The notes: generated by a model from the letters alone, not told the origin. A stretch of 64,000 nt of DNA from an uncultured Chitinophaga sp. (GCA_964386395.1 CAYLRV010000001.1:23807-87806), one strand, 5' to 3'; numbered from the stretch's first letter, positions 29,584 to 37,331 are shown. Translations and numbers: made by a program.

Positions 29584-31035
29584 TTACTCTCCTACAACCT
29601 CCTCGCTTCCTTTCTTTCGCCAGGATCTATGTTTAGCCCCGTCCATTTTTACAATCTTCGGGGTAAACTTACCGACCACATCCACCAATGCCTTCTGTGA
29701 TTGCATCACAACATTAATATCCTTGTAGGCAAAAGGTGATTCATCCAGTCCGCCACCCAGCAGTTTTACGCCAAACTTATCCAGTTCGTCTTTCATCTGC
29801 TTATCGGTAACAGAAGCGATGGCCCTTGTACGGCTCATCTTCCGTCCGGCACCATGCGAGGCAGAGTTGACAGATGCGGATTCGCCTTTACCTTTTACAA
29901 TAAATCCATCGGCGGTCATTGAGCCCGGTATAATACCCAATACATCTTTACCTGCAGGTGTTGCGCCTTTACGGTGAACGATCACATCCTTACCTTCCCA
30001 TTTTTCTTTCCAGGCAAAATTGTGGTGATTCTCCACCATCTTCACTGGTTTACGTCCCAGTTGCTTCGCAATTTTGGCATGTATTACATGGTGACAGGCG
30101 CTGGCATAATCACCAGCCAGGTTCATTGCATTCCAATACTCTATGCCTTCTTCTTCATCCAGCAAAAGCCAGGCAAGATTTTTTGATTCCTGCGGCAAAC
30201 GCCTTTTGCTGATAGCCAGTTTAGTATAGTGGTTCGCTATGTTAGCACCTAGTGCCCGAGAACCGGAGTGAGTAAGAAAACCAATGTACTTACCAGCTTC
30301 TATACCCAATACCTGATCTTCTTCTGCAATATCCACGACGCCAAATTCGGCGAAGTGGTTACCCGACCCGGATGAACCTAACTGCTTCCACACACGGCCA
30401 TGCAATTTTTTCAGCATCGGTAGTTGAAAAAATAATTCATGCTCCATCACTTCGTGGTTAGCCGCCCGATCGAATTGTGCGCCGCTGCCAAACAATGTAG
30501 CCTCATTGATTTCACGGGCAAAATATGATTCCCGGTCCGTCAGATCTTTTGGGTTGATATCGAATACACTCAGGCACATACGGCATCCGATGTCTACTCC
30601 TACTCCGTAAGGGATAACAGCATTCTCGGTTGCCAGTACGCCACCGATTGGCAATCCATACCCGCTATGTGCATCTGGCATCAAGGCGCCGGCCACACTC
30701 ACCGGCAATTTAGCTGCCTGGTACATCTGGTGCATAGCGCCTTCTTCGATATGTTCCTGTCCAAATACATTAAACTGTATGCCGGTTTGGTTCAGCGAAA
30801 TTTCTGCCCCTTCCGTTTCTTTCTTTGGTATCAGCTGTTCTGCTATCAATGCAAGTACTGCGTCATTGCTGTACTCGATTGGATTGGCCAATACTTTTTG
30901 TAATAGTTCCATCACTTCCTCCTTTCCATGATGCTTATATTTTTTTTGCATCACATCCATTGCTATGCTAATTACCGGTCCTTCCGGGTAGCCAATAGTC
31001 CTTAGTTCTTTTCCTGTTATTTTTAGTTTACTCAT
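29584..31035 (-). CDS. rtcB: RNA 3'-phosphate/2',3'-cyclic-phosphate to 5'-OH ligase RtcB
   Basis: Start at ATG 31035 (MSKLKITG). Diagnostic blocks MPDAHSGYGLPIGGV, GVDIGCRM, GSGNHF, HSGSR, NHHNFA and SASHGAGR. The roughly 90-aa N-terminal extension is not found in E. coli RtcB. Confidence 0.9.
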   Translation of the reverse strand: MSKLKITGKELRTIGYPEGPVISIAMDVMQKKYKHHGKEEVMELLQKVLANPIEYSNDAVLALIAEQLIPKKETEGAEISLNQTGIQFNVFGQEHIEEGAMHQMYQAAKLPVSVAGALMPDAHSGYGLPIGGVLATENAVIPYGVGVDIGCRMCLSVFDINPKDLTDRESYFAREINEATLFGSGAQFDRAANHEVMEHELFFQLPMLKKLHGRVWKQLGSSGSGNHFAEFGVVDIAEEDQVLGIEAGKYIGFLTHSGSRALGANIANHYTKLAISKRRLPQESKNLAWLLLDEEEGIEYWNAMNLAGDYASACHHVIHAKIAKQLGRKPVKMVENHHNFAWKEKWEGKDVIVHRKGATPAGKDVLGIIPGSMTADGFIVKGKGESASVNSASHGAGRKMSRTRAIASVTDKQMKDELDKFGVKLLGGGLDESPFAYKDINVVMQSQKALVDVVGKFTPKIVKMDGAKHRSWRKKGSEEVVGE

Positions 31036-31039
31036 TGTT

Positions 31040-31130
31040 TTGTTTTTTGAAACACGGTGACAGAGAGACAGGGGCGGCACAGTGTTTTTCGGTGTTGCCC
31101 TGTGTCGTTATGCCTTTGTGGTTCTATTTT
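31040..31130. repeat. GAACCACRRAG-type repeat arm (family shared with the GxxExxY cassette flanks)
   Basis: The reverse complement reads gaaccacaaaggcataacgacacagggcaac.... Compare gaaccacggagacacaaggacaggg at 38937. Confidence 0.45.
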
Positions 31131-31429: not shown

Positions 31430-32527
31430 TTATTTACTTACCAAAATCTGCTTCAACTGCTCTAATAGCTGACCGTTACCGCCTACGCTGATATTGCTGA
31501 TTTTGTCGGCAATTTTCTCCACGTATTCCATTTCCTTCAGCTTCCAAAGCATGGCATTTTCTTCCATCAGTTTGGCTGTGTTCAGCAGGCTACGGGTGCT
31601 GGCAGTTTCTTCACGACGCATAATGGTGTTGGCCTGCGCCTTCTTTTCTGCCACCAGTACCTGGTTCATAATCTCTTTCATATCACCTGGCAGTATGATA
31701 TCACGAATACCAAAACCATTCACCGCAACACCCAATGCTTCTGCTTTTCCTTTCACACTTTGCAGGATAAAAGGAGCAATGGCTTCCTTCTTTTCCAGCA
31801 ATTCATCAAAGCCGAATCCGGCAATGTATTCACGCAGGGCCAGTTGCAGCGCCACGTACAGTTGCTTATCGTATTCTTTGTTCAGCACCATAGCTATTTC
31901 AAGGTCTGTTACGTTGTACTGTGACCAGGCATTGATACGCAATGCAGCCTTATCACGGGTCAGTATTTCCTGACCGTTGATTTCCAGTTGTTGCTGACGC
32001 ATATCTGCTTTCGCTACATGGATAGTGATACTGTTCTTCCACCAATAGTAGGTACCTGCATCCAGTTGCTTTACAAACTTACCATCTATGAACAACACCG
32101 CTTTCTCATAGCTTTGCACCTCGTAGTTACGCACCCAGTTGCTCACCGGTGCTTTTACCAGTACGGCACGGTCGATAGCCGTATCGATTTCAACCTGGCT
32201 GATATCAGCCCGAACGAAATCATTTTGCACAACAGATTTCCAGAATGCATAACGGCCGGCCGCCAGCACCTGCTTCAACAGGCCATTTTCGTATTGCAAC
32301 ACTATTTCTGTGTCTTTCACTTCCACTACCTGCAGTATAGCAGCCAGCTCCTTGTCCTGCAACAGGATGTTTAGTTCTACCGGTGCAGTGAATTGTTTGG
32401 TAATATCATAGATATATACCTGTTCGTTTTTCCAGAACCAGTAATTACCAGTCAGCAGCAGGCGCTTGTAGGCGCCATCTTTGAACACCAAACCAACCTG
32501 CCATGCGTTAATTTTTACTTTTTTCAT
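31430..32527 (-). CDS. SPFH/band-7 (slipin-like) domain protein with a duplicated N-terminal beta-rich region
   Basis: Start at ATG 32527 (MKKVKINAWQVGLVFKDG). C-terminal SPFH-type block IRDIILPGDMKEIMNQVLVAEKKAQANTIMRREETA. The N-terminal half contains two similar YWFWKN / YYWWKN segments. Confidence 0.7.
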   Translation of the reverse strand: MKKVKINAWQVGLVFKDGAYKRLLLTGNYWFWKNEQVYIYDITKQFTAPVELNILLQDKELAAILQVVEVKDTEIVLQYENGLLKQVLAAGRYAFWKSVVQNDFVRADISQVEIDTAIDRAVLVKAPVSNWVRNYEVQSYEKAVLFIDGKFVKQLDAGTYYWWKNSITIHVAKADMRQQQLEINGQEILTRDKAALRINAWSQYNVTDLEIAMVLNKEYDKQLYVALQLALREYIAGFGFDELLEKKEAIAPFILQSVKGKAEALGVAVNGFGIRDIILPGDMKEIMNQVLVAEKKAQANTIMRREETASTRSLLNTAKLMEENAMLWKLKEMEYVEKIADKISNISVGGNGQLLEQLKQILVSK

Positions 32528-32839
32528 TTTACTTGTTTTGCCCGTCAATAAACATTTATTTACTGTCAGCATGATTAATTAAAATAAAGCCGTGCTTGCC
32601 GCCACCAGTTACTACGGAATGAGATTAATACAACCCAGTTTCGTACAGTTCTTCACTCCCTCATCAGCTATACGTATATAACAAACTATGAGTGACGAAG
32701 TATAGTCAACTTCATTATACGCTTCTTATTTCGGGTAGCTGCCCGGCTGTATTGGTACAGGCTGCTTTAGCGTCCCGACCAATTACAGGCAACAAACCCG
32801 GCTTTTATCGGTCACCATTTTTTGAGAAGTGGTGTACTT

Positions 32840-33020
32840 CTTTGATACAAGCATCCTAAGTGCTTTGCGTTTACCATTTCCGCCATTTCCCCTTTAGAGG
32901 GAAAGCGGGATTCGAACCCGCATATTGTCTGTTGCTCTGTCCACTAAGCTACCGGGCCCATTGCCCGGATGGGATTCGAACCCATGACCCACAGGTTGTG
33001 GTGATATATGTATCAGTGAA
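32840..33020 (-). ncRNA. Structured RNA with two tandem, circularly permuted tRNA-like modules (YrlA / Y-RNA-like)
   Basis: Minus-sense order is: GATAC ATAT [ATCACCACAA] CCTGT GGGTC; T-arm1 ATGGG-TTCGAAT-CCCAT (32969-32985); loop-closed acceptor hairpin CCGGGC-AATGG-GCCCGG; TA; D-arm1 GCTT-AGTGGACA-GAGC; A; ACAG ACA ATAT G; T-arm2 GCGGG-TTCGAAT-CCCGC (32905-32921); hairpin TTTCCCT-CTAAA-GGGGAAA; TG; D-arm2; anticodon-like arm AAGCA-CTTAGGA-TGCTT; GTATC. The outer segments GATAC/GTATC, ATAT/ATAT and CCTGT/ACAG are complementary. The ends of the RNA are uncertain. Confidence 0.5.
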
Positions 33021-33163
33021 ATAATAGCATACAGATAGCTATTGCGTCTGCACTGCCATGCTTGTTAAACATGTACCTGGTTTATTTTCAACAGGCATAT
33101 ATCATCTTGCCGTTAAGCAAGCCATTACGTTGATGTTTTCGCATCAACAATATTGTAAAGAGC

Positions 33164-34240
33164 TTAATTCATCAATGTCTCCGGCAGGCGAAACCCAATT
33201 ATCTCGGTCTGCTTTACTTCCTGCTGCTTTTCATGCGGGTTGGCGATCTCCGCTATTGTCATCGGACCGGTTATTGTTTTATCATATCCCAAATGTTCGC
33301 TTAGCCGCTGCGCTTTTTCTTTACTGAGCTTTCCGAATTCATAACGGGCTATCAACCTTCCTTTCCGCAACAGGGCACTGTCAATGGCTGTCAGTGAACT
33401 GTTGAATGTGCATATCAATTGCACATTCAGGAAGTCGGCCAGCAGACCATCTGATATATTCAGCAGGTTACTCACCGCTGAACTGCTGTTTTGCTTCCTG
33501 TCCATGATAATATTCTCGGCATCTTCAATTATCAAGACTGTATTCGGGTTATTGATCAGCAGTTCGATAAACTCAGGGTTCATCAGGTTTCCCGCTACCG
33601 ATGGTGAAAGGAATAAAACCCTTTTCTTTACCTTACCCACCAGGTACCGTAAATAGGTTGTCTTTCCTGTACCCGGTAAACCATGCAGCAGTACAATACC
33701 TTTGTCATTCTTTTGCCTGAGCCTTTTTTGTATGACCGTATCCACATCTTTAAAATCGTCTTCGTAAAAAAGTCCCAGATCCAGCTTTGTCCGTTTTATT
33801 TCCATCGCCCGCAGATCCATCGAATTCCGGCTTTGCACAATCAGGTTGATCTCCAATGGCTGCCGGCGTTGCCTTTCTTTAAACTGAAGGGCAATGGCAA
33901 CAATCGCTTTTACCAGTTCCCCGTCACTGCCATCGTGGAGTATTTCGCAATAGTCATCCTCCAGCTCCACAATACAGTTTTGTTGCAACACAATAAGCGT
34001 TTTATCAAACTGAAATTTCTTCTTTTTACGCTTGTACCAGGTCGTCCGATGAATGTTCTTTATTGATTGCGCAAATTTCTCCTGCAATACAGCAAACACC
34101 TTCTCCCCTTCCACATCGCTGATAAAATTGATGTTTGGCAGTGCGTTAAAACTGTACAGGTACAACATCTTTGCGTCCAGGAAAGAGTCGCCAAACACAT
34201 TGTTTGCGTTTATAACTTTCTGACTGTATAGATTTTCCAT
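33164..34240 (-). CDS. AAA+ ATPase (classical AAA clade, Bcs1-like architecture) with an uncharacterised N-terminal domain
   Basis: Walker A HGLPGTGKTT, Walker B VLIIEDAE, second region of homology with RKGRL. The N-terminal roughly 190 aa carry no recognisable motifs. Confidence 0.8.
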   Translation of the reverse strand: MENLYSQKVINANNVFGDSFLDAKMLYLYSFNALPNINFISDVEGEKVFAVLQEKFAQSIKNIHRTTWYKRKKKKFQFDKTLIVLQQNCIVELEDDYCEILHDGSDGELVKAIVAIALQFKERQRRQPLEINLIVQSRNSMDLRAMEIKRTKLDLGLFYEDDFKDVDTVIQKRLRQKNDKGIVLLHGLPGTGKTTYLRYLVGKVKKRVLFLSPSVAGNLMNPEFIELLINNPNTVLIIEDAENIIMDRKQNSSSAVSNLLNISDGLLADFLNVQLICTFNSSLTAIDSALLRKGRLIARYEFGKLSKEKAQRLSEHLGYDKTITGPMTIAEIANPHEKQQEVKQTEIIGFRLPETLMN

Positions 34241-34341: not shown

Positions 34342-34848
34342 TTACTGTACCACTTTATTTGCACAGCTGGAGCTGGCAAAAGCTTCCGGTTTAGCCTTGA
34401 AAGCAAAACCCCTGCCTGTCCGGCAGGCAGGCATTCCCATGATATAGCCCATAGCTTCCTTCAGGGCATCGTTACTTTTAAAGTTTGGGTTGGTGTTGAT
34501 GTCCGCATGCACTTCCATATCCACACTGTAGCGGCTGAATATGTTGCACAGTGCATAGGCTACTTCGATACTTTTCTGTACTTCCATCAACATCCGTTCT
34601 TTAATCGTCATACGCTGGCGGGTTGTTTCATTATGGATATACATGAAACCACCTTTCCCTTTCCGGATGAATACGATTACCGTGGCAAACTCAGTCACCC
34701 TGGCTTTCACCTGGCTATCGGTACCAATGCAGACTTTCAATTCATGTCCATTCTCTTTTTCCTGCATCAATACACGGCTTACCTCTTCCGCAATCGGGAT
34801 TTGAATCCGTTCACCGGTCAATTTTCTCCATTGTTGTTCCTGTTCCAT
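34342..34848 (-). CDS. YkuK/DUF458-family RNase-H-like protein
   Basis: 168 aa. KVCIGTDSQ, FATVIVFIRKGKGGF and KPEAFASS resemble the DUF458 family. Carries the 21-nt palindrome in frame at 34411-34431. The start codon lies 30 nt downstream (minus sense) of the last tRNA-like element. Confidence 0.55.
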   Translation of the reverse strand: MEQEQQWRKLTGERIQIPIAEEVSRVLMQEKENGHELKVCIGTDSQVKARVTEFATVIVFIRKGKGGFMYIHNETTRQRMTIKERMLMEVQKSIEVAYALCNIFSRYSVDMEVHADINTNPNFKSNDALKEAMGYIMGMPACRTGRGFAFKAKPEAFASSSCANKVVQ

Positions 34849-34877
34849 TGTTTTTGTTTTTCAATGTTGTGCTGCAT

Positions 34878-34943
34878 AAGTACAAGGATTCGATCCACCT
34901 CCGGTGGATTGTAAGCCATTATGCTACCGTTACATCATACTTG
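34878..34943 (-). ncRNA. Degenerate tRNA-like element A (66 nt)
   Basis: Acceptor-like pairing AAGTATG/TGTACTT plus A73. The interior has a CTTACAA loop-like segment, the hairpin TCCACC-GGA-GGTGGA, and TCGAATCC, but no canonical T-stem. Confidence 0.3.
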
Positions 34944-34950
34944 CTTTTGT

Positions 34951-35022
34951 GGACAAAACAGGATTCGAACCTGTACTGCTGCGGCTTCAACGCAGTGCTC
35001 TGCCATTGGAGCTATTTGTCCT
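34951..35022 (-). tRNA. tRNA-Phe(GAA)
   Basis: GGACAAA TA GCTC-CAATGGCA-GAGC A CTGCG-TTGAAGC-CGCAG CAGT ACAGG-TTCGAAT-CCTGT TTTGTCC A. A fully canonical cloverleaf with no encoded CCA. Confidence 0.9.
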
Positions 35023-35116
35023 TTTGTTTGTACCTGCACTGGCTGATCTTTTACACTTCATCACCGAATTGTGTTGCACAAACTCTGTCTTCCCGCCATA
35101 GCGGAATTATCATTGC

Positions 35117-35204
35117 GGAGAGTAAAGGATTCGAACCTTTGTACCGTTGTGAACGACAGCCCAAGCTTAGCAGGCTGGCACATTACCACTCTGTCAACCC
35201 TCCT
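35117..35204 (-). tRNA. tRNA-Ser(GCU), class II
   Basis: GGAGGGT TG ACA-GAGTGGTAA-TGT G CCAGC-CTGCTAA-GCTTG, long variable arm GTCGTT-CAC-AACGGT, AAAGG-TTCGAAT-CCTTT ACTCTCC G. There is one C.U mismatch in the anticodon stem. Confidence 0.75.
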
Positions 35205-35208
35205 TTGT

Positions 35209-35292
35209 GTGATTAATAAGATTCGAACTTATTCAGCCCGAAGGCAACGGTTTTACAGACCGTTACGACTCTCCGTCTTCGTCGTACTCACC
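35209..35292 (-). tRNA. tRNA-Tyr(GUA), class II
   Basis: GTGAGTA CG ACGA-AGACGGAGAG-TCGT A ACGGT-CTGTAAA-ACCGT, variable arm GCC-TTCG-GGC, ATAAG-TTCGAAT-CTTAT TAATCAC A. Has C8 instead of U8 and one G.A mismatch in the acceptor. Confidence 0.8.
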
Positions 35293-35303
35293 AAAATTTC
35301 AGC

Positions 35304-35380
35304 GGATGAAGAAAGGGTCGAACTTTCAACCATCGGCTTAACATCCGCCACTGGCGGACTGCCATTGAGCTATTCATCCA
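35304..35380 (-). ncRNA. tRNA-like element E (perfect acceptor and T-arm, non-canonical core)
   Basis: GGATGAA TA GCTC AATGGCAG [TCCGCC-AGT-GGCGGA] TGTTAAGCCGATGGTT GAAAG-TTCGACC-CTTTC TTCATCC G. It has no D-stem partner and no 5-bp stem with a 7-nt anticodon loop. ATGTTAA could be a GUU (Asn) loop only with a poor stem. Confidence 0.4.
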
Positions 35381-35384
35381 TTGT

Positions 35385-35458
35385 TGTCCCGGTGAGATTC
35401 GAACTCACAACCCCCCGGTTAAAAGCCGGGTACATCTTCCAGTTGAGCTACGAGACAT
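35385..35458 (-). tRNA. tRNA-Lys(UUU) with a weak D-stem
   Basis: TGTCTCG TA GCTC-AACTGGAA-GATG TA CCCGG-CTTTTAA-CCGGG GGGTT GTGAG-TTCGAAT-CTCAC CGGGACA A. U1-A72 pair. Only 2 of 4 D-stem pairs form. Confidence 0.65.
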
Positions 35459-35464
35459 TTTTGT

Positions 35465-35556
35465 TGCGGCTACCGGATTCACTGTCTGCCGACAGGCAGG
35501 GAACCAGTAACTCCTGCCATGTAAAAACAGCTTTCTCCCATTGAATTAAGCCGCAC
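35465..35556 (-). tRNA. tRNA-Val(UAC)-like with a 20-nt T-loop insertion
   Basis: TGCGGCT TA ATTC-AATGGGA-GAAA G CTGTT-TTTACAT-GGCAG GAGTT ACTGG-TTC[CCTGCCTGTCGGCAGACAGT]GAAT-CCGGT AGCCGCA A. The insertion occupies plus 35482-35501. Confidence 0.6.
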
Positions 35557-35573
35557 TGCTTCATAAGGTTTGT

Positions 35574-35645
35574 GATGGTTGACAGATTCGAACTGTCAGC
35601 CGCTATCGTATCAGGATAGTACTCTGCCATTGAGTTAAACCATCA
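35574..35645 (-). tRNA. tRNA-Ile(GAU)
   Basis: GATGGTT TA ACTC-AATGGCA-GAGT A CTATC-CTGATAC-GATAG CGGCT GACAG-TTCGAAT-CTGTC AACCATC A. Canonical cloverleaf. Confidence 0.9.
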
Positions 35646-35649
35646 TTGT

Positions 35650-35721
35650 TGCGGCTGCCAGATTCGAACCAGCATTTGAAGCTTATGAGACTTCTGAGTT
35701 AGCCATTACGCTAAACCGCAA
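35650..35721 (-). tRNA. tRNA with CAU anticodon (Met or Ile2; cannot be distinguished here)
   Basis: TGCGGTT TA GCGT-AATGGCTA-ACTC A GAAGT-CTCATAA-GCTTC AAAT GCTGG-TTCGAAT-CTGGC AGCCGCA A. One D-stem mismatch and a G.U-rich T-stem. Confidence 0.7.
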
Positions 35722-35730
35722 TTAATATGT

Positions 35731-35804
35731 AAGCCTGGTGAGAATCGAACTCACACTACATGGCTTCTAAGGCCATTGCCTCTCCCAATTGGGCTACAAG
35801 CTTA
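35731..35804 (-). tRNA. tRNA with Leu anticodon UAG on a class I (short variable loop) body
   Basis: AAGCTTG TA GCCC-AATTGGGAG-AGGC A ATGGC-CTTAGAA-GCCAT GTAGT GTGAG-TTCGATT-CTCAC CAGGCTT A. Confidence 0.7.
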
Positions 35805-35814
35805 TTTCATTTGT

Positions 35815-35887
35815 CGGCCAGACTGGATTCGAACCAGTAACCTTTTGCGTATAAGGCAACTGCTCACACCGTTGAGCTACAGGCCGC
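35815..35887 (-). tRNA. tRNA-Ile(UAU)
   Basis: CGGCCTG TA GCTC-AACGGTGT-GAGC A GTTGC-CTTATAC-GCAAA AGGTT ACTGG-TTCGAAT-CCAGT CTGGCCG A. One U.U mismatch in the acceptor. Confidence 0.8.
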
Positions 35888-35895
35888 TTGTTTGC

Positions 35896-35988
35896 TGACT
35901 CAGAAAGATTCCCTGCCAGTCGGCAGACAGGGAACTTTCATCTCCTCATTCGTAGTGAGGTGTTCTTCTCCATTGAACTATAAGTCAT
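35896..35988 (-). tRNA. tRNA-Arg(ACG) with a 20-nt T-loop insertion
   Basis: TGACTTA TA GTTC-AATGGAGAA-GAAC A CCTCA-CTACGAA-TGAGG AGAT GAAAG-TTC[CCTGTCTGCCGACTGGCAGG]GAAT-CTTTC TGAGTCA G. The insertion occupies plus 35913-35932. All four stems are otherwise good. Confidence 0.7.
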
Positions 35989-35993
35989 CATTG

Positions 35994-36110
35994 TACGGCT
36001 TCAGGAATTCCTGCCTGGCCGGCAGCCAGGGAACCTCTGCAACGATCACCTGCTATTTTCCTCTCAGAAAGAAAGGGAGGTGATTATGTTTCCATTACAA
36101 CAAGCCGTAT
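35994..36110 (-). tRNA. Aberrant tRNA-like gene (possible Gln-CUG) with a T-loop insertion and an elongated anticodon arm
   Basis: Acceptor ACGGCTT/AAGCCGT (or TACGGCT/AGCCGTA). Outer stem CACCT/AGGTG encloses CCC TTTCT-TTCTGAG-AGGAA AATAGC. T-loop TTC[CCTGGCTGCCGGCCAGGCAG]GAAT (insertion at plus 36012-36031). The T-stem is weak. Confidence 0.4.
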
Positions 36111-36113
36111 TGG

Positions 36114-36186
36114 GTGCACTGCGGGGCTCGAACCCTGTTCTCCCGATGCACAGTCGGGCACTTTACCAAATAAGCTACAGCCACCA
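36114..36186 (-). tRNA. tRNA-His(GUG) with encoded G-1
   Basis: G(-1) GTGGCTG TA GCTT-ATTTGGTA-AAGT G CCCGA-CTGTGCA-TCGGG AGAA CAGGG-TTCGAGC-CCC.. CAGTGCAC C. G-1 lies opposite C73. The 3' acceptor strand has TG where C is expected, giving a 1x2 internal loop. Confidence 0.7.
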
Positions 36187-36191
36187 TCTGT

Positions 36192-36283
36192 TACCCGGCT
36201 CAGACTCCCTGTCTGCTGACAGGCAGGGAACTGAGAATACCAGACTCAAATTCTGGTGTGTTGCCAATTACACCACCCGGTAA
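36192..36283 (-). tRNA. tRNA-Gln(UUG) with a 20-nt T-loop insertion
   Basis: TACCGGG TG GTGT-AATTGGCA-ACAC A CCAGA-ATTTGAG-TCTGG TATT CTCAG-TTC[CCTGCCTGTCAGCAGACAGG]GAGT-CTGAG CCGGGTA A. The insertion occupies plus 36209-36228. Confidence 0.7.
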
Positions 36284-36287
36284 TCGT

Positions 36288-36335
36288 GCAGCATGAGTGA
36301 ATCCCTGTCTGCAGACTGGAAGTGAACATGCAGCC
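36288..36335 (-). ncRNA. Acceptor-stem-like hairpin enclosing a short copy of the palindrome, flanked by AGTGAA direct repeats
   Basis: gcagcatg (36289-36296) pairs with catgcagc (36328-36335) with one mismatch. The interior is agtgaa-tccctgtctgcagactgg-aagtgaa. The 3' side is followed by CGAT, like the CAAT trailers of the array. Confidence 0.3.
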
Positions 36336-36593: not shown

Positions 36594-36712
36594 AGCTACC
36601 TCCTTTCTATTAACTGCATTTTTTATTTCCGCACTCTTCACCAATTGATTTCCTAACACTTCAACGACGGGAAATCTTTGTGGCAACCCACCTTCGCCAA
36701 AGCTTCGGTGGG

Positions 36713-36749
36713 TAAATAAAAAAACCCGGTCGTTTTTAGCGACCGGGTT
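36713..36749 (-). terminator. Rho-independent terminator (minus strand)
   Basis: aacccggtcg-tttttag-cgaccgggtt hairpin (36723-36749). In minus sense it is followed by TTTTTTTATTT. Confidence 0.75.
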
Positions 36750-37080
36750 TCCTGGCAAGCACAATTGTACTTACCTATGGATTGTCCGGTCGCCGATGGT
36801 GATCATTCTCATTACCTATGGGCACAATACTCCTGTTCGCTTGCGCAGAGCAATAGCATATGGCTGATAGTTGATCATTCATCGTTTGACTAAATCGTTT
36901 ATGTCGTAATAGTTTCAGCATTCTTTATTTTTCGGTTACAATAGATTCAAAACTTTTCCGATTACATAACTATTTTTCTTGTCCACTTACACTGAAGCTT
37001 GGGATTATCGCTTTCGCTTGCGCTGTGGGTAACACTTCTTCGCCGGCGGGTAACCCACCTTCGCTAAAGCTACGGTGGGT

Positions 37081-37109
37081 AAATAAAAAGCCCCGACGTT
37101 TGCCGGGGC
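37081..37109 (-). terminator. Rho-independent terminator after the Dabb gene (minus strand)
   Basis: gccccg-acgtttgc-cggggc hairpin. In minus sense it is followed by TTTTTATTT. Confidence 0.7.
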
Positions 37110-37331
37110 CTGTATTTCATTGAATTCGTTAGTATAACTTATCCTGGCAAAATACATGCCCCACAAACAGTGTAGTCTCCCTTGGGACTAAACCAATTCG
37201 CTGATTCAATATGTAATTTTATGCGTAGCATGTTTTTGTTTTGCAGTGCAAAGATGAATTTATTTTTTTGATGTTGCCAAATTTTTCTTGAAGAATTTTT
37301 AAAAATTATTTTTTTGCGCACAATTCCTATT

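Follow-up and report, generated by a model that had tools for sequence, protein, structure and literature searches.

A short-armed tRNA-Leu(UAG) gene and a tRNA-Ile(UAU) gene in a tRNA array upstream of an RNA-repair operon of an uncultured Chitinophaga

The window analysed here is a stretch of 64,000 nucleotides from an uncultured Chitinophaga sp. (GCA_964386395.1, CAYLRV010000001.1:23807-87806). Its minus strand carries a same-strand array of about 16 tRNA or tRNA-like units within 1.4 kb (34875 to 36282), delineated by ARAGORN, by the Rfam tRNA model and by the conservation of such arrays upstream of an AAA ATPase gene; genes of an RNA-repair operon, including that of an RtcB RNA ligase, follow the array. 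Two adjacent units are the main subject of this work: a tRNA-Leu(UAG) gene of class I size (74 nt, minus strand, 35730 to 35803) and a tRNA-Ile(UAU) gene (minus strand, 35813 to 35886). Both genes are intact, bear the identity signatures of leucine and isoleucine tRNAs, respectively, belong to families that have members in other genomes and lie in a conserved synteny. Judging from their sequences, they are probably a leucine tRNA gene and an AUA-reading isoleucine tRNA gene of a supernumerary array that would provide reserve tRNAs. A leucine tRNA of class I size accompanied by a UAU-bearing isoleucine tRNA is atypical of a bacterial housekeeping set, as pointed out in an earlier note made from the window alone, and the structural description given there is accurate.

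ARAGORN calls the leucine unit as tRNA-Leu(tag) at 35729-35803 on the minus strand, and the Rfam tRNA model detects it at 35730-35803 with 59.0 bits (E 3.4e-10), the gathering threshold of this model being 29 bits. The assignment is also supported by a covariance model built for this family, by covariation among its relatives and by a test of its D arm (see below). Read 5' to 3' on the minus strand, the acceptor stem is AAGCUUG/CAGGCUU, its 5' strand being followed by UA. The D arm comprises the stem GCC/GGC and the loop CAAUUGGGAGA, and a single A precedes the anticodon stem AUGGC/GCCAU, which closes the loop CUUAGAA. The variable loop, GUAGU, has 5 nt and ends with U, and the T arm is GUGAG-UUCGAUU-CUCAC. 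The discriminator A73, found at 35730 after the acceptor strand CAGGCUU, is invariant in the alignment of the family (alignment A1, see below). The ATGGC/GCCAT stem, the CTTAGAA loop and the 5-nt variable loop had all been described exactly by the earlier note, but the genes are on the minus strand and its coordinates were 1-2 nt off. With its 5 nt, the variable loop is not the stem-loop of more than 10 nt that forms the canonical long arm of class II tRNAs; in the same alignment frame, the variable arms of Escherichia coli leuW and leuQ have 15-17 nt.

According to a review of tRNA identity (PMC9976931), the elements that the E. coli leucyl-tRNA synthetase (LeuRS) reads are A73, the A15-U48 pair and, within the D loop, G18G19 and A20a. 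This enzyme can do without the anticodon and without the long variable arm, and a minimal arm-less tRNA-Leu is still active (PMC9976931). The UAG unit carries A73, a possible A15-U48 pair, G18G19 and A20a, the exact position numbers in its D arm being derived from the alignment only. The architecture of this arm is that of E. coli leuW and leuQ, i.e. a 3-bp stem with an 11-nt loop, NAAUUGGNAGA, as can be seen when GCC-CAAUUGGGAGA-GGC of the window is aligned with GCG-AAAUUGGUAGA-CGC of leuW. A structure-aware pattern of the arm (3-bp stem, NAA..GGNAGA loop) was run on the 1516 tRNAs called by ARAGORN across the entire set of loci retrieved. Matches were obtained for all four E. coli leucine genes and for 18 of the 36 long tRNAs called 'Leu', at least 3 of the non-matching calls looking like mis-assignments by ARAGORN, but for just 3 of 1302 non-leucine tRNAs. 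The specificity for leucine came only with the structure-aware motif, which combines the 3-bp stem and the AGA end of the loop. A BLAST search of E. coli genomes with the UAG unit gave no match, even at E 10. Taken as a whole, the unit can be viewed as a leucine tRNA that lacks the long variable arm but keeps the elements read by LeuRS, and these elements suggest that it would be charged with leucine.

The same short body is found in 11 other Chitinophagaceae loci, where its anticodon is CAG (6 loci) or UAG (5 loci), and also in phages of Vibrio, Lactobacillus and Cronobacter, with the anticodons UAG, UAA and CAA, and in at least 120 viral contigs. All of the 133 viral pattern matches listed have leucine anticodons (UAA 57, UAG 39, CAA 22, AAG 5, GAG 5 and CAG 5); none of these 133 is a Phe-GAA, although the pattern permitted GAA, and 119 of them have A73. 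Since this body moves among all six leucine anticodons and no others, it is a leucine body. The view of the earlier note that the aminoacylation identity is unclear is not borne out: A73, the possible A15-U48 pair, the D arm shared with E. coli tRNA-Leu and the exclusively leucine anticodons of the relatives all point to leucine. A confident assignment of the body to leucine, which that note regarded as a reason to abandon its claim, is thus effectively obtained by other means, namely the identity elements and the anticodons of the family.

The alignment A1 and the covariance model include 17 members of the short leucine family, the window copy among them. In this alignment, 97.1% of the cells of the cloverleaf are paired, both-sided changes are found in 16 of the 20 pairs, none of 500 shuffles is as good and no slid register comes close. 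Such a covarying cloverleaf is not due to chance and indicates a structure under selection. The UAG unit scores 93.3 bits with the model, the 12 Chitinophagaceae copies ranging from 82 to 94 bits, and the next best class consists of the Lys-UUU genes of the arrays (60-72 bits).

The tRNA-Ile(UAU) gene was identified by ARAGORN (tRNA-Ile(tat), 35813-35886), by the Rfam model (64.2 bits, E 1.2e-11, at 35814-35886), by its orthologues and by covariation; the neighbouring UAU anticodon reported by the earlier note is therefore real. The gene has the loop CUUAUAC, A73 and the pairs C1-G72, C4-G69 and U12-A23, and 18 orthologues were found in related loci. The loop CUUAUAC, A73, C4-G69, U12-A23 and A35-U36-A37 are invariant across the 19 sequences, in which 95% of the cells are paired and 13 of the 21 pairs show compensatory changes. 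Outside the wobble base, the determinants of the bacterial isoleucyl-tRNA synthetase (IleRS) are A73, C4-G69, U12-A23, A35, U36, A37, A38 and C29-G41 (PMC9976931). In the window gene, position 38 is C, not A, and the 29-41 pair, instead of being C-G, is U-A, the orthologues having A-U or U-A. The codon AUA is common in the long open reading frames (ORFs) of the window (19.2 per 1000).

On the other side of the leucine gene lies a tRNA gene with the anticodon CAU (minus strand, 35648 to 35720), found by ARAGORN and Rfam (49.8 bits) and present as 18 orthologues. With G4-C69 and G5-C68 in its acceptor stem, it looks like an elongator tRNA-Met, tRNA-Ile2 being the alternative. It is followed by a tRNA-Ile(GAU) gene (minus strand, 35572 to 35644; ARAGORN, Rfam 65.8 bits). 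The Ile-UAU, CAU and Ile-GAU genes span 315 bp (35572-35886), in agreement with the approximately 320 bp given previously. No ORF bearing the SGGxDS PP-loop motif of TilS was found in the 64-kb window, a result that is silent on the rest of the genome.

The whole array comprises, in order, Gln-UUG, His-GUG, a Glu-like unit with a long anticodon arm, Arg-ACG, Ile-UAU, Leu-UAG, Met-CAU and Ile-GAU, then Val-UAC, Lys-UUU, a degenerate Asn-like unit, a Tyr-GUA-like unit, Ser-GCU, Phe-GAA and a weak tRNA-like unit, separated by spacers of 3 to about 110 nt. Seven tRNAs are called by ARAGORN between 34949 and 35886, and the His-GUG, Tyr-GUA-like and degenerate Asn-like units are detected only at lower thresholds. 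CCA is encoded by no array unit in the window, the commonest trailer being CAA. When the array tRNAs of the window and of the loci L007-L086 are considered together, the trinucleotide behind the discriminator is CAA 156 times and CCA 29 times. The Glu-like unit (minus strand, 35994-36108) has a much lengthened anticodon arm that ends with the hairpin CCUYUC-UUUCU-GARAGG and could be read as carrying a Glu-UUC-like loop; it is conserved in two other loci (L057, 8444-8537; L066, 6861-6954), and the window copy also bears a palindrome in its T loop. The degenerate Asn-like unit (minus strand, 35303-35379) has a UCCGCC-AGU-GGCGGA hairpin in place of its anticodon region, and the Tyr-GUA-like unit (minus strand, 35208-35291) has an imperfect acceptor stem. 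Upstream of the array, two similar terminator-like hairpins (minus strand, about 36700-36760 and 37060-37115) are each followed by a hairpin of the type UACCCACC...GGUGGGU.

In several units, the T loop is split after C56 by a 20-nt palindrome. These are tRNA-Gln(UUG) (36191 to 36282, palindrome 36208-36227), tRNA-Arg(ACG) (35895 to 35987, palindrome 35912-35931) and tRNA-Val(UAC) (35464 to 35555, palindrome 35481-35500), all on the minus strand. The palindrome is GC-rich (CCTGYCWGYCGRCWGRCAGG) and occurs in either orientation. Clean tRNAs are called by ARAGORN for Gln, Arg and Val once the insert has been removed in silico, and in the fold predicted with the insert the T arm becomes a long hairpin. 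After removal of the insert, the best identity of these units to their orthologues is 92-93%, versus 84-96% for the intact units. A fourth T-loop palindrome (36011-36030) is carried by the non-standard Glu-like unit, and a partial copy lies at 36304-36318. Another member of the palindrome family, of 21 nt (CCTGCCTGCCGGACAGGCAGG, 34411-34431), is located in frame in an RNase H-like gene of the operon, to which it adds the seven residues PACRTGR.

The canonical 20-mer, CCTGCCTGCCGGCAGGCAGG, is also found in other Chitinophagaceae loci, in T loops, beside D arms and outside arrays, exact copies being present in the genome loci L017, L020, L021, L022, L032, L033, L048, L051 and L066. It occurs exactly in at least 120 metagenome contigs (L209-L328), where its flanks are mostly non-tRNA; a number of these metagenome copies are located, as judged by eye, within another hairpin's loop or within a tRNA D or T loop. 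In the metagenome locus L228, the 20-nt palindrome lies inside a hairpin of the UACCCACC...GGUGGGU type. A scan of metagenomes for the Val tRNA with or without the insert gave no match. The possibility that the palindromes are array-specific introns ligated by RtcB was downgraded, as the 20-mer turns up in many metagenome contigs and in most of them has no tRNA around it. The palindrome appears to be a generic small palindromic insertion and not an array-specific intron, and the distribution of CCTGCCTGCCGGCAGGCAGG suggests that it is a very small insertion element targeting hairpin loops.

Directly downstream of the array, the minus strand encodes an RNase H-like protein (YkuK/DUF458, PF04308; 34342 to 34848, Pfam E 2.2e-34), followed by the AAA ATPase identified with Pfam (33164 to 34240), a Band-7/SPFH protein (31430 to 32572, Pfam E 5.1e-27) and the RtcB RNA ligase (29584 to 31080, Pfam E 3.3e-81). 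Upstream of the array are found genes for a LigT-like 2H phosphoesterase, a PD-(D/E)XK nuclease and a radical SAM protein; the genes for RtcB, the RNase H-like protein, the LigT-like 2H phosphoesterase and the PD-(D/E)XK nuclease all lie within 6 kb. From the array to the Band-7 gene, no strong terminator-like site was detected except the palindrome inside the RNase H-like gene.

The AAA ATPase gene was used as an anchor to retrieve related loci, and the counts given below refer to the best 80 of 356 relatives of the AAA protein in GTDB genomes. Almost all of these 80 loci are labelled Chitinophagaceae or unclassified Bacteroidota, including Terrimonas, Niastella, Lacibacter, Ferruginibacter and Puia, and their AAA proteins share 65-77% identity with that of the window; a stray Bordetella label is attached to a single contig. 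The locus L007 is that of Terrimonas pollutisoli H1YJ31. In 50 of the 80 loci, 3-16 tRNAs form an array in the same place, upstream of the AAA gene, and the downstream genes are conserved as well (RtcB in 63, the RNase H-like gene in 60 and Band-7 in 52). The commonest array members across loci are Lys-UUU, Phe-GAA, Asn-GUU, Arg-ACG, Gln-UUG, His-GUG and Asp-GUC; Ile-UAU is present in 18 of the 80 loci and the short leucine tRNA in 11. A prophage origin of the island was considered and rejected, as its synteny extends across the family and the genes seen among the ORFs examined are of chromosomal type, none of them being a phage gene.

The region between the AAA and Band-7 genes (minus strand, 32573 to 33163) harbours a structured RNA of about 450 nt that mimics tRNAs, recognized by a sub-threshold Rfam match and by its conservation. 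It includes two circularly permuted tRNA-like modules (about 32850-33000), in which a T arm is followed by a closed acceptor helix and then by a D arm. Module 1 matches the Rfam YrlA model at 32927-32993 with 39.2 bits (E 2.4e-6), which falls short of the gathering score (69). At its end, module 2 has an anticodon-like hairpin, the 'anticodon' of which is UAG, GAG, GUA, GAU, GUG or others depending on the genome. The RNA is kept in the 14 loci inspected, and the anticodon-like stem of module 2 covaries. The CUUAGGA loop that had been noticed in module 2 does exist (GCACTTAGGATGC, minus strand, 32851-32863), but it belongs to this tRNA mimic and not to a tRNA gene. No Rsr/Ro60 gene was found among the ORFs of the window that were scanned.

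According to the reading favoured here, in which the two genes provide reserve tRNAs, their role would be as follows. The Leu-UAG tRNA would be charged by the host LeuRS and would decode CUA and CUG, the latter being the main leucine codon of the long ORFs of the window (29.6 per 1000). The Ile-UAU tRNA would be charged by the host IleRS and would read AUA directly, without the lysidine made by TilS. A housekeeping class II tRNA-Leu(UAG), a tRNA-Ile2(CAU) and tilS would be encoded elsewhere in the genome. The array would then serve as a reserve pool of tRNAs, alongside repair by RtcB, once the housekeeping tRNAs have been lost to cleavage or depletion, for example through anticodon nucleases or translational stress.

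A number of observations weigh against this reading. CCA is not encoded in the Leu-UAG gene, and several units near Leu-UAG and Ile-UAU are interrupted or degenerate, which fits relaxed selection on the array. The short leucine gene is present in 12 of 81 sources and Ile-UAU in 19 of 81, so that neither is indispensable. Several short leucine orthologues have a mismatched 1-72 pair, and mismatches at 1-72 or 3-70 are found in some of them. Housekeeping leucine tRNAs that read CUN codons have a G at position 37, modified to m1G37. This position is A in the Leu-UAG unit but G in E. coli leuW and leuQ, and in the short leucine family it can be A, G or C (A in several phages, C in the loci L014 and L019); because it is not fixed as G, many short tRNA-Leu copies cannot carry m1G37. 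In addition, a plain nearest-neighbour test based on alignment scores of the D region did not separate leucine tRNAs from generic GCUC-AAUUGGUA-GAGC arms.

That simple similarity of the D region is not leucine-specific is one of the points that could be invoked for a recoding or mischarging tRNA, i.e. a non-leucine class I body that has acquired the UAG anticodon and inserts another amino acid at CUA and CUG. The variable loop is indeed short, as in non-leucine tRNAs, and the nearest non-leucine tRNAs according to the covariance model are the Lys-UUU genes of the arrays. However, the unit has a leucine-type D arm and A73, it has no G3-U70 pair and hence no alanine determinant, and the lysyl-, isoleucyl-, valyl- and methionyl-tRNA synthetases read the anticodon, which here is UAG (PMC9976931). 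Furthermore, the anticodons of the family all belong to leucine, in both the CUN and UUR boxes, and a reassignment would be highly disruptive, CUG being the commonest leucine codon here. This explanation is largely refuted and very improbable, the identity evidence nearly excluding it. A different proposal is that the array is a decaying relic of a phage-derived tRNA cluster, the two units being intact yet functionless and on their way to becoming pseudogenes. The content of the arrays is highly variable (3-16 detectable tRNAs per locus), four to five units of the window have palindromic insertions and at least three are degenerate, and some leucine orthologues show the 1-72 or 3-70 mismatches mentioned above. 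By contrast, the position of the array beside the operon is kept across many genera at protein identities of 65-77%, the many compensatory substitutions in both families imply purifying selection on structure, and the interrupted units, without their inserts, equal the intact ones in conservation (92-93% versus 84-96%). Decay is thus quite unlikely for these two genes.

A non-translational role, in which the array units would be decoys or sponges for tRNA-targeting toxins, or cofactors or substrates of RtcB and the Band-7 protein, is also unlikely. The same operon does encode a conserved tRNA mimic, the closed acceptor helix of which is unchargeable and the anticodon-like loop of which is variable, and some units of the array cannot be standard tRNAs, as their anticodon arm is long or their T loop holds a palindrome. 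The lack of constraint on position 37 in the short leucine family would also fit such a role, and a sponge function has been proposed for operonic tRNAs of Anabaena (PMC8421152). Against this, acceptor stems, A73 and the identity elements of aminoacyl-tRNA synthetases are conserved, although a decoy for anticodon nucleases would not need them, and the anticodons of hundreds of relatives remain in leucine boxes. The array tRNAs of Anabaena are reported to be functional and may join translation (PMC8421152).

The reading as intact genes for reserve tRNAs could be extended, in a rather doubtful form, to a module of 'spare parts' for the repair operon of Chitinophagaceae, vertically inherited, not a passive relic of a phage, and made of tRNAs that are non-standard so as to evade toxins or the dependence on modifications through which housekeeping tRNAs are disabled. 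Cases in point would be the leucine tRNA, which has neither the long arm nor G37, the isoleucine tRNA, in which U34 and not lysidine would serve to read AUA, and the lack of an encoded CCA. If this were true, the host itself would encode, in the array, an equivalent of the toxin-resistant tRNAs known from phages. Irrespective of this extension, an apparent anomaly is removed, as the arm-less tRNA-Leu is a recurrent and selected design, common in viruses and accessory arrays, and agrees with the biochemistry of bacterial LeuRS, which does not need the long arm. For annotation pipelines and screens for code reassignment, short-armed leucine genes should not be taken as evidence of recoding. The context is weightier than the two genes themselves: a whole bacterial family has retained a variable array of tRNAs joined to an operon encoding RtcB, a Band-7 protein and a tRNA mimic. 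This arrangement of array and operon in Chitinophagaceae offers a natural test system in which to ask whether accessory tRNA arrays and RNA ligation act together in restoring translation after tRNA damage.

Both genes belong to known kinds, i.e. the short-armed tRNA-Leu and the tRNA-Ile(UAU) of phages and transferred clusters. The class I sized tRNA-Leu of phages (Vibrio phage V05, Lactobacillus phage Bacchae, Cronobacter phage CR9 and many IMG/VR contigs) resemble the Leu-UAG unit in their size (73-79 nt), their variable loop of 4-5 nt, their GYCCAA..GGNAGAGRC D arm, their A73 and their location in tRNA clusters, with 81% identity over 73 nt. The phage copies are carried by viral genomes and many of them encode CCA, whereas the Leu-UAG gene lies in a chromosomal locus and does not. 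Mycoplasma mobile has a tRNA-Ile(UAU). In Lactobacillus plantarum, tRNA-Ile(UAU) coexists with tRNA-Ile2(CAU), as reported at second hand in PMC9976931 (citing Tomikawa 2018 and Uesugi 2022). In these two species, AUA is decoded by a UAU anticodon that is redundant with the lysidine route or replaces it; the tRNA is a housekeeping one there, whereas it is an optional array member here.

Transferred tRNA gene clusters of Mycobacterium mucogenicum and M. phocaicum carry a Leu(TAG) with a short variable loop, the housekeeping leucine copy being long-looped, as described by Behra et al. 2019 (PMC6582537). The Ile(TAT) of the mycobacterial cluster is expressed, alongside Leu(TAG), and TilS is retained (PMC6582537). 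The same unusual pair is therefore found inside a tRNA gene cluster of another phylum: the claim of the earlier note that Leu(UAG) and Ile(UAU) form an unusual pair is right for a housekeeping set, but the pairing is not peculiar to this genome (PMC6582537). The clusters of mycobacteria (Actinomycetota) are sporadic and linked to HNH homing endonucleases, whereas the array described here (Bacteroidota) shows family-wide synteny and is linked to an rtcB operon.

The association of RtcB with a Band-7 protein and a tRNA-like RNA (b7a-tRNA or YrlA) was described by Burroughs and Aravind 2016, as summarised in bioRxiv 10.1101/312249. The locus shares with this repair system, as outlined there, an rtcB gene adjoining a Band-7 gene and a tRNA-like non-coding RNA. 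It differs from the b7a-tRNA and YrlA systems of that outline in that its RNA has two permuted modules and an anticodon-like arm, and in that a full tRNA array lies upstream. The literature search found no paper tying tRNA arrays to Chitinophagaceae, and no description of the family-wide fusion of a tRNA array with an operon encoding RtcB, Band-7 and a tRNA mimic in this family. Long tRNA arrays (L-arrays) were defined by Santamaria-Gomez et al. 2021, who report them in Bacteroidetes, with rtcB nearby and co-regulated, and describe the trn operon of Anabaena PCC 7120 as an L-array induced by translational stress (PMC8421152). In the same paper, L-arrays are presented as sporadic, as spread by horizontal transfer and as normally silent until translational stress induces them (PMC8421152). 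The array of the window resembles L-arrays in being long and on a single strand, in its short spacers, in its redundant isoacceptors and in its RNA-processing neighbours, including rtcB. Unlike the sporadic L-arrays depicted in that paper, it is positionally conserved, being found in 50 of 80 loci from many genera, while its gene content varies.

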